Assembly: GCA_028713045.1 (NCBI GenBank) | Contig: JAQTOY010000001.1 | Span: 1,523-65,522 of the forward strand | DNA length: 64,000 bases | From: Candidatus Nanoarchaeia archaeon | GTDB lineage: Archaea; Nanobdellota; Nanobdellia; Pacearchaeales; GW2011-AR1 | Direction of reading: 5' to 3' | Shown here: one piece after another, positions 12,079-48,872 of the stretch | Layout: each line of letters opens with the position of its first letter | How positions within the stretch are numbered: position 1 is the stretch's first letter | The notes under the pieces: model-generated | Told to the model about the DNA's origin: nothing | The model's input: only the letters and a program-made list of their open reading frames with translations | The model's database searches: none | Program-made: the position numbers and the translations under genes

Positions 12079-13548
12079 TTATTTTTCTTCAGATTTCCTA
12101 GCATATTTTTCTTTCCATATTGGAAGGCTTTTGTCTGAAAGTTCTTTATCAAATTTTTTTAAGACTTTCTCATAATCTTTTGAAGTTAAAGCATATTTTG
12201 CAAATTTGTCTTCAGGTTTTGTTTTTTTAGTAACTATATTCTTTTTAAAATTAATAAAATGATCTCTAATGGCGCAAGGCATAAGCCAGTTGTCAGGATC
12301 ATGTTTTAAAAATCCATAATCCTTCTGCCATTTTCTTCCATTCACAAATAATTCTGAAAACAAACTATCTGTCAATTTTTTCCCTTCATTATATAACTGT
12401 ATTATATTATCTTCAAAAAATGGAACAAAGGTGCAGGGAGTTATATTGCCATTCCAATCAATGTACAAATATCCAGATCTTCTTCCAAAGGCAATACAGC
12501 CATCTGTCAGAACTCCAGAATTCCAAAAGTCGGCAATGCAATATTTTTTTTCTTCTAATAAATGTACCCATTTATTATAAAGTTCAATTCTTTGTTCAGG
12601 ATTTATCATGCAGTTTCTCATATCACATGCTTGCCCTATAGGCATTAGCTGAAACATCCACATATAGACCGCTCCTAGCTCATTAAAAACAAAATCGTAA
12701 AATTTATCATCCTTTAAAATATCAAAATTCTTTGAAGTTGCAGTTACTGAAATTCCAAATGGTACTCCTGCTTTTTTAAGATTCTTCACTGAATTTAGCA
12801 TTTTTTCATAAACACCTTTACCCCTTCTTTCATCAGTTTCTTTTTCATAACCCTCAATTGAAATAGCTGGAGTTACATTGCCAAGTTTTGCTAATTTTTT
12901 TGCAACTTCTTCTGTTATTAAAGTTCCATTTGTATAGAACAAAAAGAACATGTCATTATATTTCTCCCATAAATCAAATAAAGTTTTTCCATTGCTGTTG
13001 TACATTAATGGTTCCCCTCCAGTGATTGTCATAAATCTTGAGCCCCATTCATCATGTATCTCACCAGCGATTTTGTCAATAATGTCATAGGGCAGAGTTG
13101 GAGCATTATACTTTGAAGAAGCATAACATCCCTTACAGGTTAAATTACATTTTTGAGTAGGTCCCAAAACAATAAACGCAGGAGGCATGTCTCCATATTT
13201 TTTTTTGAACTCATTGCATGTGGACATTAATTCTTCCGAATGAATAAGATTTTTTCCTAGAGTCTTGAAAGCTTTTTTAGCTACCTCAGGAGAAATAAAT
13301 CCTTTTTTTAAAGTTCTGTCAACAGAATCCAATAGGGAATTTATAAATCGATATTTTTTAATTTGGACTTCTCTAGGCGATCCAAATGGATTTTTCAGTA
13401 CTAAGTACTCATAAAAACTCTTTTTAACTTTATCAAAAAATAATTTTCTTAAAAGAGGATAATTAAGACAGGTAGTTATTATTTTAAATCCTGCTTCTTC
13501 TTTTAAGTTCTTTTTATTTTCTTTGTTAAGCAAAATTTCTGATTGCAT
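12079..13548 (-). CDS. radical SAM enzyme with SPASM/twitch-like C-terminal Cys cluster and ~125-aa N-terminal extension
   Basis: CNLTCKGCYAS (CxxxCxxC) with GGEPL downstream; C-terminal Cys-rich segment CIAFGRR...TPCTFVPF...MPCAIRDHF. Confidence 0.8.
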   Translation of the reverse strand: MQSEILLNKENKKNLKEEAGFKIITTCLNYPLLRKLFFDKVKKSFYEYLVLKNPFGSPREVQIKKYRFINSLLDSVDRTLKKGFISPEVAKKAFKTLGKNLIHSEELMSTCNEFKKKYGDMPPAFIVLGPTQKCNLTCKGCYASSKYNAPTLPYDIIDKIAGEIHDEWGSRFMTITGGEPLMYNSNGKTLFDLWEKYNDMFFLFYTNGTLITEEVAKKLAKLGNVTPAISIEGYEKETDERRGKGVYEKMLNSVKNLKKAGVPFGISVTATSKNFDILKDDKFYDFVFNELGAVYMWMFQLMPIGQACDMRNCMINPEQRIELYNKWVHLLEEKKYCIADFWNSGVLTDGCIAFGRRSGYLYIDWNGNITPCTFVPFFEDNIIQLYNEGKKLTDSLFSELFVNGRKWQKDYGFLKHDPDNWLMPCAIRDHFINFKKNIVTKKTKPEDKFAKYALTSKDYEKVLKKFDKELSDKSLPIWKEKYARKSEEK

Positions 13549-14639: not shown

Positions 14640-15860
14640 TCAAAATAATTTCATTTGACCTTTTCCAAATTTTTTTCCTGAACCATAAGCTCTTACTTTT
14701 ACTCCTTCAAGTTTTACTAATTCATCTCTTGGAAAAGTTATTCTTGCATCTTCAATTGTACATTTATCACAATATTCTGTCTTTCCTATTCCTCCGCAAA
14801 ATCCAATTCCTTGTTCCATTAATCTTTGAAAATCCGGATGCAAATATTTTGGAATATAATGGGCCCCATATTTTTGGTAAAGAAGTCTTTCAGTTCCATC
14901 CTCACATAATGCTCCAGGACTCTGAAAATGATCCATTACTCTGCAACCTTGTGAAGCTCTTTGAATAGCGTACCAACCCATAGCATACAAGCGGTCTGCT
15001 GCATCGGGTTTATATGCTCTTAATGGAAGAATCCTAATGGGTATTCCAGTTTTTTTACGGGAATTTAATGCTTGATCTAATGCAGATCCATGCTCTAAAT
15101 TTGATTCTATAGATTGAGCAACATCGCAAGTGACTGTCAAACAAGTATTGATTCCCTTTTTGTAAAATCGTTCTGCTTGGTTAATTCTCCATTGATTAGA
15201 AAACCCTTGAGAAACCGCTCCAGGTTCTGCATGATTATATCCGATACTGTATGAAAGAAGCCCAATAACCGGTTGAACATTTTCTGCAAGATCTTTTCCA
15301 GAAGGTATTTTCATTTGTTCCGCTAGATTTCCTACTGCAGGATTATTATCTCTAGCGAATCTTGCAGTTTCTTTTGCGCCTTCTATTCCAAAAGGCAACA
15401 TTTTTGTTGTTATAATAACTCTTGAAGAAAATTCTTTACAAAGACCAAGAAAATCCATTAAAGTTCCATAATAATAGGGATGTCCGGGATCTGTTGAAAC
15501 TCCTATTCTTATTATTGCAGGATAACCGTTGTCTGCAAAACTTTTCCTTGTTTTTTTATTTACTACCTTTGGTCGGGTATTGCCTTCAACAGTAGTTGCA
15601 TAACAATAAATGCATTTTTGTCCTAATAATCCCTGATTCGCATATTTTTTTAGGTTCCCTTCAGCGTAATAACCGTTATTCCTAACCACTTCCTCTAGCA
15701 TTTCCACTGGGACCTGGGAAATGCAACCTCTTGCAAAATCAGTCGAATACCATATTAAACATACTTCTTCAACTGTCCCATTGTCTAATTGCCTTTGGAC
15801 GGTTCTTGCTTTTCCTCCATATCTTATTATAACAGATTCAATTCTTTTTTTCATTGTCAA
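14640..15860 (-). CDS. hypothetical Cys-rich protein, compositionally foreign (possible degenerate radical-SAM/SplB-like)
   Basis: 406 aa, Q/R/G/A-rich unlike the host; QKCIYCYA resembles the CxYCY end of a radical SAM motif but lacks the first Cys; further Cys pairs (CLTVTC, FCGG...CDKC). Confidence 0.45.
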   Translation of the reverse strand: MTMKKRIESVIIRYGGKARTVQRQLDNGTVEEVCLIWYSTDFARGCISQVPVEMLEEVVRNNGYYAEGNLKKYANQGLLGQKCIYCYATTVEGNTRPKVVNKKTRKSFADNGYPAIIRIGVSTDPGHPYYYGTLMDFLGLCKEFSSRVIITTKMLPFGIEGAKETARFARDNNPAVGNLAEQMKIPSGKDLAENVQPVIGLLSYSIGYNHAEPGAVSQGFSNQWRINQAERFYKKGINTCLTVTCDVAQSIESNLEHGSALDQALNSRKKTGIPIRILPLRAYKPDAADRLYAMGWYAIQRASQGCRVMDHFQSPGALCEDGTERLLYQKYGAHYIPKYLHPDFQRLMEQGIGFCGGIGKTEYCDKCTIEDARITFPRDELVKLEGVKVRAYGSGKKFGKGQMKLF

Positions 15861-15947
15861 ATTAAATTGTGATTATTTTTTAGATTTAAAAAGAAATAGT
15901 TGTTTGATTATCATATTCTTTATATAACTTAATTTAATTCCTGAAGT

Positions 15948-16904
15948 ATGACTGCTGATAGAAAAAAATTTCAAGTGCTGATTAATGAAAAAAAAGCAAT
16001 AGAACTTTCACAAAGATTATTTCAGATGATGGATGAAAGAGTTCCGCCTTATGATAGAGAGGGAGTTTTTCCCGATGCTATTGTTCCAGAAGGCATGGAA
16101 ATCGGAGGTTTAGAGCATAGACTTTTTTTATTTTATTCAGGATCAATTGATGGAAGAACTTCTTCGCCGCAGGTTTATCAAGAATTAAGAGATTTAAGTG
16201 CCAACGCGGTTAATGGAATTCAATTGTTATTAAAAATTGTAGATCCTGAAACGATTAAATTAAAATTATATGGCCCTCTAGAAAGTTATTTATTACAATA
16301 TCTTCCAAAAACACTGGGGGCTTCGGAAGAAAGTGAAAGAATAGCTGAAGTTGCAGACAATATAAAATTTAATTCACGATTATTGCTCGAAAGATATTCT
16401 GGTGATCCTAAAAATATTCTTGTTCCAGATTCTGTTGAGGAGACTCATTTAAGATTATGCAGGTTTAAAGGAATAGGCAGACATAAAGGCGCATTGATTA
16501 TGAAAAACTATGTAAAATTTGGAGTCTGGCCTTTTAATGAATATGAAATTCCAATGAAAGTTGATAGGCATACTTTCAGAATACTCTATGGGACTGGAGT
16601 AATGGAAATCACTAGAGATGGAGAACCTCTTGAAGATGGTGAACAAATTTCAACAAAATTCTCTTTTGGTCCTGTGCAAGATCAATTACGAGGAATTACT
16701 TCTAGAAATAGAATTTCTGCAATAAAATTTAATGATGGTTTATGGAGTCTTGGTTCAAGATCATGCAGAAGAAATGATTATGTTTTTTGCCAGGTTAATT
16801 GTTATGTTGGCTGTTATTCAAGACCAAATACTCCTGAAAGTGTTAGTTATTTAATTGTAGGTTCTGATACAAGAAAGAATAGAATGCAAGGGGTTTTATT
16901 TTAA
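15948..16904 (+). CDS. HhH-GPD superfamily DNA glycosylase-like protein with C-terminal Fe-S cluster loop
   Basis: HhH-like LCRFKGIGRHKGALIM followed by VDRHTFRI (compare EndoIII VDTHVFRV); C-terminal C-x7-C-x3-C-x3-C; foreign composition. Confidence 0.5.
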   Translation: MTADRKKFQVLINEKKAIELSQRLFQMMDERVPPYDREGVFPDAIVPEGMEIGGLEHRLFLFYSGSIDGRTSSPQVYQELRDLSANAVNGIQLLLKIVDPETIKLKLYGPLESYLLQYLPKTLGASEESERIAEVADNIKFNSRLLLERYSGDPKNILVPDSVEETHLRLCRFKGIGRHKGALIMKNYVKFGVWPFNEYEIPMKVDRHTFRILYGTGVMEITRDGEPLEDGEQISTKFSFGPVQDQLRGITSRNRISAIKFNDGLWSLGSRSCRRNDYVFCQVNCYVGCYSRPNTPESVSYLIVGSDTRKNRMQGVLF

Positions 16905-16910
16905 GTCTAT

Positions 16911-16998
16911 AGTGAAAGTCATAAATATTTTACGTACTCTTATGACTTTCACTTGATAGCAAAGGCGCAACTCAGGAATTATCAGCGTCCTTTGCTAT
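16911..16998. terminator. two consecutive perfect hairpins (13-bp and 10-bp stems) between convergent genes
   Basis: agtgaaagtcata/tatgactttcact at 16911-16953 and atagcaaagg/cctttgctat at 16956-16998. Confidence 0.5.
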
Positions 16999-17001
16999 AT
17001 T

Positions 17002-18087
17002 TTAAAACTCGGGTTGTTCGAAGGTTGCAGGATCAAAGGAAGTATCTTCTAGTTCTCCCAATCCTAATTTTGTTTGGAACAACCAGTCGTGAGCTAAGTT
17101 AAGATTATTTAAAAATTTCCTTTGTCCTTCTTCGGTCATTTCTACTTTTGTTATATCAAATCCTTTTACTGGGAAATTTCTATAAATCCCCATTGGTCTA
17201 CAAATTAAACTAGGTGGCCTGAATCTTTTAATTGTTAAATGTTCTAGTCCTAGAAATCTATATAATTCAGGATCGTAATCTTCTCCTAAGAGTTCTTCAA
17301 TTGTTCCTACTGGTTTAACTAACCTACTTCCATTTGTACGTCCACCATTTAAAAGGGTGTTTAATCGAGTTGAAATCTGAAATTCGTAGGCAGAGTCATA
17401 TCCGCATAATGAGGATTCCTGATCAAACTTTTTTTCTAGTCTAAGCAAGTGACTCCTTAGTAATCCGAATAGCAGGTTTATAGGGATTATCACTTCTGTC
17501 CTCACGTCTTGAGTTAGATTTTTTGTCAGACAACTATTATCACAATGATGTTTTCTTCCATTACGGCTTTTCCCATTTCGGTCACAGTGGTAACTGTCAT
17601 AATCTCTTCTTCTTTGTCCATAGGTGAATAATAAATAATTAACTCCTGGAGTCCAATCTCCAAATTCTATTCTTTCTAATAGTAATTGTGTGTGTCTTTT
17701 TAATTGTCTTAAGGGAATCCAATATTTACTTGATTTTGTTAAGCTAGCTTTACATTCTAAGTATACTACTCCTTGTTCATAAACTCTTACTGAATCTGGA
17801 TTAGAAGTAAAGCCATTAGTTTCTTCCCTAAGGTAATCTTTTGGGTTTAGATTAGGTAATTCTTTTCCTTGATAGTCCGGAGGAGAATATGTACAATCTC
17901 CTAAGGCAGTAAAGAAATTTGATAAGTTATCTTTTTTGGCTTTTGCTAAAGCTTCCTGTTAAGATCCTAACTGAAAGTTCGTCTTGGGTTTGTCTGGTAA
18001 CCTATTATATAATGGTCTAAATACTACAGAATCTTCAGATATTTGATTTAAACCTGGAATATTTCTTTGACATGTTCCTCTTTTCAT
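17002..18087 (-). pseudogene. disrupted gene: PD-(D/E)xK-like plus Cys/His-cluster nuclease-like protein with in-frame TAA
   Basis: A continuous minus-strand reading frame runs from ATG 18087 to the stop at 17002, with a single in-frame TAA at 17959-17961. There is a PD...ECK motif (NPDSVRVYEQGVVYLECK) and HCDRNG...HHCDNSC. The ORF track shows only the distal 167 aa. Confidence 0.45.
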
Positions 18088-21499: not shown

Positions 21500-21572
21500 G
21501 TCCCTGTAGCTCAGCTGGTAGAGCATTCGACTGTTAATCGAAGGGTCGGAGGTCCGAGTCCTCCCGGGGACG
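21500..21572 (+). tRNA. tRNA-Asn(GTT)
   Basis: Cloverleaf: acceptor gtccctg/cggggac, D-arm gctcagctggtagagc, anticodon stem ttcga/tcgaa with loop ctGTTaa, T-arm ggagg-tccgagt-cctcc, discriminator g. Confidence 0.9.
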
Positions 21573-48104: not shown

Positions 48105-48701
48105 ATGAAAAAGCCGATTACCGAAGAAAAGAAATTAAAAAAAATTGAAGAAACTTTGATTCAGGTTGGTTTGAGAATCGCCAAGCGCGGGGAAGGCGCT
48201 CTTTTTGTAGTAGGAGATGCAAAATACAAGCCGTTAGTTAAACAGTCAGTCCCTCCTTTTGAGATTACAAAGAATCCAAAATTACTGGAATCTCTGGCAT
48301 TGATTGATGGGGCAGTAATAGTCGATAAAAATGGTATAATGAAAGCTTATGGAGTTATGATAAAATCTACCCGGACTTTTAAGAATTTTGGAACAAGGCA
48401 TTCTGCAGGACTAAGCGCTGCAAAAGGAGATAATCTTGTTGTTTTAATTTCAGAAGAGGATAAAAAAATAAGAATCCTTAGAAATGGAAAAATGGTAATG
48501 CAAATTGATGCATTGCAAAAAAATGTTGAGGAATCGGTTCCTTATGCAGTTGAATTACTGGAATCAATTGGTGCGGGAACAATTGGAGCAATAGGAACAA
48601 GCCTCTTACTTCCTGCTTTGGGAATTACCCTTCTTCCTGGAATAATTGTTTTTGGTTCGGCTTATTATCTTGGAAAGATGTTGACAAAAAAATGGCGATG
48701 A
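48105..48701 (+). CDS. dacZ: diadenylate cyclase (DAC domain) with C-terminal TM anchor
   Basis: DGAVIVDKNG and GTRHSAGLSAA match the DisA_N DGA / RHR motifs; C-terminal hydrophobic helix. Confidence 0.75.
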   Translation: MKKPITEEKKLKKIEETLIQVGLRIAKRGEGALFVVGDAKYKPLVKQSVPPFEITKNPKLLESLALIDGAVIVDKNGIMKAYGVMIKSTRTFKNFGTRHSAGLSAAKGDNLVVLISEEDKKIRILRNGKMVMQIDALQKNVEESVPYAVELLESIGAGTIGAIGTSLLLPALGITLLPGIIVFGSAYYLGKMLTKKWR

Positions 48702-48707
48702 TTCATA

Positions 48708-48810
48708 CAGAGTAAAAAACTACATAAGTTATGATGCAGTTAGATACTGTAGTTTTTCACTCTGTTTTTAATAGCATCTTTTATTTATTATTCATTACTA
48801 AGATGCTATT
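48708..48810. terminator. tandem hairpins (17-bp and 11-bp stems) between convergent dac and rhomboid genes
   Basis: cagagtaaaaaactaca/tgtagtttttcactctg at 48708-48764, followed by ttttta, then aatagcatctt/aagatgctatt at 48770-48810. Confidence 0.55.
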
Positions 48811-48872
48811 AAAAAGTCTCATAGAGTATTAAACAATACTCCACCTTTAAATGTGGGTAAAATTCAAATACT

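Follow-up and report, generated by a model that had tools for sequence, protein, structure and literature searches.

Spore photoproduct lyase (SPL) and the SPL-like protein gp53 of phage M6 are radical S-adenosylmethionine (SAM) enzymes that act on DNA, gp53 together with a glycosylase-like enzyme bearing a helix-hairpin-helix (HhH) motif, and these two were the only radical SAM enzymes known to be associated with DNA at the time of that report (PMC8989533). In phage M6, thymidine is hypermodified by the HhH glycosylase-like aGPT-Pplase and the SPL-like gp53 (PMC8989533). The DNA analysed here, a stretch of 64,000 nucleotides from a Candidatus Nanoarchaeia archaeon (contig JAQTOY010000001.1, assembly GCA_028713045.1, positions 1,523 to 65,522; hereafter the window), is a low-GC archaeal contig (31.6% GC) that carries a small module built around a comparable pair: gene A, whose product has a radical-SAM-type fold, and gene B, whose product belongs to the HhH-GPD superfamily of endonuclease III (EndoIII) and AGOG. 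A third gene, C, encodes a nuclease-like protein and is disrupted in the window. Judging from the protein families and partners involved, the module is most likely directed at DNA. On balance, it probably represents a set maintained vertically in DPANN archaea with a role in DNA transactions, in which damaged bases would be processed in connection with replication or repair. A narrower proposal is offered more tentatively, as plausible and short of probable: A and B would form a PCNA-tethered radical-SAM pathway of DNA repair or modification specific to DPANN archaea, in which a non-canonical A acts on a base flipped out by the EndoIII-like B and takes the third ligand of its cluster from an N-terminal Cys pair.

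The association of A and B is evident from 35 loci around homologues of the two proteins, whose open reading frames (ORFs) were searched with hidden Markov models (HMMs) built iteratively from the window proteins. A directly adjoins B in 15 distinct loci; C is found in 12 loci, 11 of them other than the window, with homologues of 316-394 aa beside A or B, and a different partner, D, occurs in 5. The genes appear in the orders C> <B A>, C> A> <B, A> C>, <B A> D>, D> <B A> and A> D>, and the divergent A/B orientation of the window recurs in L001, L004, L006, L010, L022, L027, L028 and L035. Between the window and L001, C is 27% identical (E=2e-8) and B 31% identical (E=2e-52). The flanking genes vary by clade: alanyl-tRNA synthetase (AlaRS) in 7 loci, TrpRS in 5 and LeuRS as well, whereas an RPA-like and a proteasome gene stand beside the module here. 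The varied order and the different flanks argue for functional linkage rather than frozen synteny. A natural fusion joins the two proteins outright: P0187 (793 aa) has a divergent A at residues 161-491 (E=5e-22) and, behind it, B at residues 508-788 (E=3e-50). Across many independent contigs the three genes thus lie side by side, and A and B can be one protein, as expected from the idea of an earlier note, made from the sequence without database searches, that the three genes belong together.

Several side observations concern the same loci. P0187, a member of the P0042 cluster, occurs on 2 contigs. Other genomes show signs of decay or mobility of the module, with B split into two ORFs in L012 (5779-6919) and A split into 348 and 61 aa in L030 (6001-7214), and IS66 transposase fragments flank A in L031 (1-5843). 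A 376-aa ORF beside B in L028 and a 354-aa ORF beside B in L033 were considered as C relatives and rejected.

Protein B of the window has no match in Pfam, NCBIfam, PHROGs, PADLOC or PDB sequence searches and falls below the Pfam thresholds for HhH-GPD and AGOG. Its family is nonetheless large: a word-indexed search returned 3 clusters, and an HMM scan of 1.84 billion representatives returned 404 at E<=1e-3. Clustered at 50% identity, the B representatives number about 400, and 89 of them were used for the conservation analysis and the family profile. Compared with the PDB, this profile matches Pyrobaculum AGOG (1xqo, E=1.5e-5) and, over nearly the full length of its chain, EndoIII (9nzc_A, E=1.1e-6). 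The alignments bring together the HhH motifs and the catalytic Asp of V-D-x-H, and the four C-terminal Cys of B fall on those of the EndoIII Fe-S loop; in the alignment with 9nzc_A, FkgfGp..aaLl pairs with LPGIGRKSANVVL and iKiDrH with IPVDTH. The HhH motif, the EndoIII-like VDRHTFRI and the C-terminal loop of four Cys that the earlier note had read in the window protein are therefore all present and conserved (profile E=1e-6). K204-x-D206-x-H208 and C273/C281/C285/C289 are invariant in the homologue alignment; among the 89 representatives, D206 is invariant and H208, W266, G269 and the four Cys are at least 90% conserved. D206 aligns with D172 of AGOG, the catalytic residue of that enzyme. 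Pfam AGOG matches appear in 5/12 and 11/89 B relatives (best E=9.2e-7), and the fusion P0187 scores 23.5 bits against an HhH-GPD/AGOG cut-off of 26.1. The HhH lysine is not conserved, the positions of K174 and K180 varying across the family, so a monofunctional enzyme would be expected if B is a glycosylase. The N-terminus of B adds about 100 residues with conserved motifs of their own (PD..P.G…H..FLF and GDPR). One relative, P0144 (481 aa), begins with a thymidylate kinase domain (Pfam E=2e-20) fused to the B-family domain, an arrangement that hints at a nucleotide- or thymidine-related substrate.

Protein A is likewise without a match in Pfam, NCBIfam, PHROGs, PADLOC or PDB sequence searches. 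Its homologues form 30 clusters, and the named ones all come from Pacearchaeota, Woesearchaeota, Nanoarchaeia or unclassified archaeal metagenome-assembled genomes. AlphaFold2, given the 30-sequence alignment, models A with a mean predicted local distance difference test score (pLDDT) of 88.4 and a predicted template modelling score (pTM) of 0.89, and the model contains the partial (beta/alpha)6 TIM-barrel core of the radical SAM fold. Foldseek ranks LipA first and SPL second to fourth among its matches, at TM-scores of just 0.3-0.4. Weak Pfam Radical_SAM (PF04055) matches occur in 4/30 A relatives (best E=0.0025); the A profile finds nothing meaningful in the PDB, a search of viral folds in BFVD returns weak generic radical SAM matches only, and QueE and queuine lyase are among the weak similarities. 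The description of A in the earlier note as radical-SAM-like accordingly stands, the fold being recovered in a confident model; the motif is non-canonical. The remnant CxYCY reported there is the invariant C83-x-Y-C86-Y, which resembles the C-H-Y-C-Y motif of SPL (PMC8989533). The first Cys of CX3CX2C, however, is absent from 30/30 sequences and from the fusion P0187, the position four upstream never being Cys. The Cys pairs of the earlier description are equally real: C34 and C46 are invariant and C141, C355, C364 and C367 near-invariant, the last three making up a C-terminal C-x8-C-x2-C group. Y85, before the last cluster Cys, is at least 90% conserved, and Y85, Y87 and C141 are all near-invariant; by sequence only, they were set beside the H-atom-donor Cys (C140/C141) and the Tyr relay of SPL. 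Invariant polar residues lie at the predicted strand ends (R118, G120, E124, S205, E212, Q218, D246, S250 and N254). The model and these residues suggest that A is a divergent member of the SPL-like radical SAM fold whose metal site has been rewired and whose third cluster ligand could come from C34 or C46.

One subfamily of A stands apart. In L019, L020, L021, L025, L029 and L034, A takes a short form that lacks about residues 158-195 of the window protein; B, C and D are all missing from these loci, and in each of them the gene is divergent from Kae1/TsaD. The cluster beside A in these A-only loci was considered as a divergent B and rejected, being Kae1/TsaD itself.

The third position of the module is variable. 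Gene C runs for 362 codons in a single frame interrupted by one TAA (Table 1). The 42 codons upstream of the stop still align with homologue N-termini, and downstream of it no in-frame ATG, GTG or TTG occurs until 17505, beyond the conserved PD…ExK motif. The earlier reading of a disrupted PD-(D/E)xK nuclease-like gene is borne out to this extent, the frame being broken and the PD…ExK…Q motif present, with the nuclease assignment remaining at the level of the motif. Numbered from the residue after the stop codon, P54, D55, E68, K70 and Q85 are invariant in an alignment of 9 C sequences at 18-23% identity, as are F15, Y113 and G114. Q-x-x-x-Y appears in 6/9 of these sequences, and the window copy has H for Y. 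Of the two Cys/His clusters in C that had been pointed out together with PD...ECK (HHCDNSC and HCDRNG), only some members carry the insert; PD…ExK is invariant. A homologue search started from C itself yielded nothing, its homologues being found through the neighbourhoods of A only, and the C family matches no Pfam, PHROG or PDB profile, the PHROG scan giving nothing consistent. C proteins also end in a conserved D-[DG]-[IV]-P-F (for example L001 6091-7053; EQPEF at 17002-17016 in the window), unlike the tails of A and B described below. To judge from its reading frame, C is inactivated here by a single nonsense codon, so A and B may be functional alone.

D is a protein of about 650-670 aa in which Pfam recognises two ParB_N domains and HTH_ParB (E as low as 3e-25). 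It lies directly beside A or B in its loci (L022 among them, also noted as L022/23), and the window does not contain it. No sampled locus has both C and D, a distribution in which D is apparently an alternative third component to C.

The C-terminal tails of A and B offer a link to the replication machinery. A basic linker is followed by Q-x-x-L-F, with examples such as GQMKLF, GQKRLF, QLSLF and RMQGVLF; in the window, A ends in GQMKLF and B in RMQGVLF. Within the last 10 residues, [QN]xx[LIMV][FYW] is found in 9/201 ORFs of the window and the loci, and all nine are A or B. Across the families the tail is present in 9/30 A proteins and 21/89 B representatives. The RNase HII of L032 (10377-11057, Pfam RNase_HII) ends in GQKKLF, like the tails of the A family, and archaeal RNase HII is an established client of PCNA. 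QxxLF may therefore be a shortened PCNA-binding motif in these archaea, and the match between the A and B tails and that of RNase HII leads us to infer PCNA docking of both. The canonical PCNA-interacting (PIP) box, Qxx[LIM]xx[FYW][FYW], is not found in the shorter A and B tails.

A working model can be assembled from these features. Its core would be two Fe-S enzymes whose genes share a short intergenic region and are transcribed away from each other, A as an SPL-like radical-SAM barrel and B as an EndoIII/AGOG-like HhH-GPD enzyme, with a variable third partner, either the putative nuclease C with its PD-(D/E)xK motifs or D with its two ParB_N domains. A and B would dock on the sliding clamp PCNA through the short C-terminal Q-x-x-L-F. 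B would then bind duplex DNA and flip out the target base, either cutting the glycosidic bond, as a monofunctional enzyme that keeps the catalytic Asp and has no conserved HhH lysine, or handing the base to A. Holding a [4Fe-4S] cluster through C83, C86 and C34 or C46, A would carry out SAM-derived radical chemistry on the nucleotide, with lesion reversal, rearrangement or modification as the outcome. Finally, C would incise or process the strand, or D would scan or clamp the DNA. The order of these steps, like the preference for repair over modification, is what we infer from the families involved.

The composition of the region bears on how the module came to be here. The earlier note had described the three genes as an island of visibly higher GC, compositionally foreign and acquired horizontally, that carries a restriction or repair module. 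On calculation, the region has a GC content of 0.338 against 0.316 for the window, and A, B and C (0.357, 0.331 and 0.338) lie within about one standard deviation (SD) of the 65 window ORFs (0.323 ± 0.032). GC at third codon positions (GC3) is lower rather than higher (0.19, 0.18 and 0.22 against 0.24 ± 0.047), so the reported shift turns out to be host-like composition. The bias in the proteins did stand up, with K, I and N low and Q, R, G, A and P high by 1-2 SD from the mean, but the adjacent proteasome gene has the same bias; the slightly higher GC of the module genes is attributed to this amino-acid content. Besides the small excess in regional GC, the island reading can appeal to the different genomic position of the module in different lineages. 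Against it, the named homologues of A are all DPANN archaea, no mobile-element genes stand beside the module in the window, and neither a scan of viral contigs nor tblastn searches of phage genomes for A and B found relatives. A compositional island was therefore rejected on the GC and GC3 comparison; the claim is largely refuted, and horizontal acquisition of a foreign restriction or repair module is now scarcely credible.

The strong perfect hairpins that had been noticed between B and C are real, with a 14-bp stem (16911-16924/16940-16953) and a 10-bp stem (16956-16965/16989-16998), and the region folds at -34 kcal/mol (z=-6.5). No further copies of their arms occur in the window, on which ground a MITE or other repeat family was rejected, and Rfam matches in the region are at chance level only. 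A second tandem pair, at 48715-48757 and 48765-48815 (z=-5.1), lies between convergent genes ending at 48701 and 48873. This analogous pair indicates a general feature of the genome rather than a mark of the module: the hairpins at 16911-16998 are likely 3'-end or terminator structures, and tandem hairpins appear to be the usual terminator structure of convergent genes in this genome.

Three other accounts of function have to be weighed against damaged-base processing by A and B. The closest in mechanism holds that A is catalytically degenerate, its Fe-S or Zn site being ligated entirely by Cys, and that it no longer cleaves SAM but assists B by binding DNA or as a redox partner; on this view the module would be a divergent but otherwise ordinary set for base-excision repair, differing from the favoured explanation in the radical chemistry only. 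The consistent loss of the first Cys of CX3CX2C, with C34, C46, C83 and C86 all invariant, and the missing Pfam Radical_SAM match of the window protein speak for it. On the other side, C-x-Y-C-Y keeps its aromatic residue, and in canonical radical SAM enzymes the aromatic residue before the last cluster Cys stacks on SAM. The invariant polar residues at the strand ends of A argue for an active site under selection, and long inserts inside the Cys motif are tolerated in QueE-type enzymes. A degenerate A is thus doubtful, if still a serious competitor. Modification of DNA bases, possibly hypermodification, with a restriction or exclusion part attached, would cast B as a base-flipping transferase or an enzyme of glycosylase fold, A as a radical-SAM isomerase or modifier acting on DNA, and C or D as the component that discriminates or targets unmodified DNA. 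This account draws on the same fold pair in phage M6, the HhH aGPT-Pplase and the SPL-like gp53 (PMC8989533), on one B relative that matches aGPT-Pplase3 weakly and on another that is joined to a P-loop kinase of the thymidylate-kinase type. Losing the nuclease, as has happened here, is typical of decaying restriction-modification systems, and the genomic position of the module varies, with IS66 fragments around one locus. ParB-like proteins accompany DNA modification systems such as DndB and DpdB, a precedent for the ParB-like partner D. Yet HMM and hhalign comparisons of A, B and C with all phage M6 ORFs, gp53 included, found no significant similarity, and the neighbourhoods hold no kinase or pyridoxal phosphate (PLP) enzyme. 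PADLOC defence models match A, B and C in 0 families at E<=1 and no viral relatives were found, the surroundings are housekeeping genes with clade-level AlaRS synteny in 7 loci, and the tails match RNase HII, an enzyme of replication and repair. A modification system, the main rival, is accordingly unlikely as a whole and in the roles it would give to A, B, C and D.

The remaining account moves the substrate from DNA to RNA or free nucleosides, making the module one for tRNA modification or 7-deazapurine salvage, in which B would be a hydrolase similar to Q_salvage and A a radical SAM enzyme like queuine lyase or QueE. AlaRS, TrpRS, LeuRS and Kae1/TsaD are frequent neighbours, a single B relative matches Q_salvage weakly, and A has the weak QueE and queuine-lyase similarities. 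However, B can be aligned throughout its catalytic domain, DNA-binding HhH and Fe-S loop included, with EndoIII and AGOG, both of which act on DNA. Of the partners, one has a PD-ExK motif and the other ParB_N and HTH_ParB, the tails are of clamp type, and translation genes may simply be abundant in small DPANN genomes. An RNA or nucleoside module is very improbable on these grounds. The processing of damaged bases by A and B remains the favoured explanation, and a number of points weigh against it too. AlphaFold2 reached a pLDDT of 38.9 for B from 3 sequences, so the fold of B is taken from sequence profiles; A lies under the Pfam Radical_SAM threshold and its Foldseek matches have low TM-scores; and C is assigned to the nucleases by motif. 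The four invariant Cys of A could instead ligate a cluster completely or hold Zn, leaving a site unable to bind SAM. A stands alone beside Kae1/TsaD in six loci, and neighbouring genes are often tRNA-related. Many members of both families are without the tail motif, QxxLF is shorter than a canonical PIP box, and the Nre protein in L001 has a canonical-type ending, QTRLNKWF. Repair and a modification system are equally compatible with a ParB_N partner and with loss of the nuclease.

In the window, the frames of the three genes agree exactly with those first drawn (Table 1). Database sequences that match A and B exactly belong to a Candidatus Nanoarchaeia archaeon metagenome-assembled genome. 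The database copy of A is 404 aa long, as it would be if translation began at the second ATG (15854). The A-B spacer is presumed to be a shared promoter region: a TATA-like TTTATATA precedes the B start by about 21-28 nt and TTTTTAAAT lies upstream of A, both read from the sequence. The housekeeping neighbours are an RPA-like OB-fold protein, a proteasome subunit and an ORF that, by its sequence, may encode a translation initiation factor. The gene at 12079-13548(-), two genes from the module, encodes a canonical radical SAM protein (Pfam Radical_SAM E=4e-24) whose C-terminal region is SPASM-like; it was rejected as part of the module, not being conserved beside A in other loci, and is probably unrelated. 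The sole tRNA gene of the window, tRNA-Asn(GTT) at 21500-21572(+), does not adjoin the module, which gives no sign of tRNA-targeted integration.

Table 1. Features of the module in the window, with the loci of the alternative partner D
Feature	Coordinates	Strand	Description
Gene A	14640..15860	-	406 aa; predicted radical-SAM-fold Fe-S enzyme, closest to SPL; basic tail
A-B intergenic region	15861..15947		87 bp, AT-rich, divergent
Gene B	15948..16904	+	318 aa; HhH-GPD superfamily (EndoIII/AGOG-like), base-excision-type; C-terminal 4-Cys [4Fe-4S]-loop motif
Hairpin 1	16911..16953		14-bp perfect stem, 15-nt loop; between convergent B and C
Hairpin 2	16956..16998		10-bp perfect stem and 3 further pairs; between convergent B and C
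Gene C (pseudogene here)	17002..18087	-	PD-(D/E)xK-motif nuclease-like; Cys/His-rich insert HCDRNG…HHCDNSC
In-frame TAA	17959..17961	-	codon 43 of gene C; disrupts the gene
D	L006 3043-5013; L022 7294-9300; L028 7154-9157; L032 5842-7797; L035 5872-7833		directly beside A or B; C absent

If the proposed role holds, A would be a further DNA-associated radical SAM enzyme, this time in archaeal chromosomes. An archaeal pairing of SPL-like and EndoIII-like proteins, fused in one protein and equipped with clamp-type tails, would point to a new form of anoxic DNA repair or marking. The DPANN archaea that carry the module have very reduced genomes, and little is understood of how they maintain their DNA. 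With its uniformly altered Cys motif, A is a natural test case for the re-ligation of radical SAM clusters, and the roughly 400 B representatives, a sizeable uncharacterised set, would gain a functional context.

The folds are known and the pairing of a radical SAM enzyme with a glycosylase fold on DNA has precedents; this gene combination is so far undescribed, the literature search having found no description of it in DPANN. No Pfam or NCBIfam model matches A, B or C of the window, and relatives match weakly in the case of A and B and not at all in that of C. C resembles RecB/Cas4-type nucleases in its invariant P-D, the E-x-K 13 residues on, the conserved Q and, often, Q-x-x-x-Y, and differs from them in having no profile or structure match at all, in a C-terminal half of about 150 residues and in the Cys/His insert of some members. 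With EndoIII and AGOG, B has in common the HhH, the catalytic Asp in VDxH and the four Cys of the Fe-S loop, and it is set apart from them by the N-terminal extension, the unconserved HhH lysine and the QxxLF tail. Its Cys spacing, C-x7-C-x3-C-x3-C, is also unlike the C-x6-C-x2-C-x5-C of EndoIII. A is 16% identical to SPL (SplB, PDB 4fhc/4fhe) with no match at the level of sequence. Whereas the A family is without the first cluster Cys, it has an additional N-terminal Cys pair and the C-terminal C-x8-C-x2-C group, and it comes from non-sporulating DPANN archaea, where it is linked to a glycosylase. A bacterial pair, TIGR03916/TIGR03915, joins a "putative DNA modification/repair radical SAM protein" to a partner like the family-4 uracil-DNA glycosylases (UDG). 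The concept is the same, a radical SAM enzyme paired genetically with an Fe-S protein of glycosylase fold, but neither A nor B has an NCBIfam match at E<=1, and the fold of B is HhH-GPD rather than UDG. Thymidine hypermodification in phage M6 differs from the module, which has no 5-hydroxymethyluracil (5-hmU) DNA kinase or PLP enzyme near A or B and is cellular and archaeal rather than viral; it nevertheless brings together the same two folds as A and B, acting jointly on DNA.

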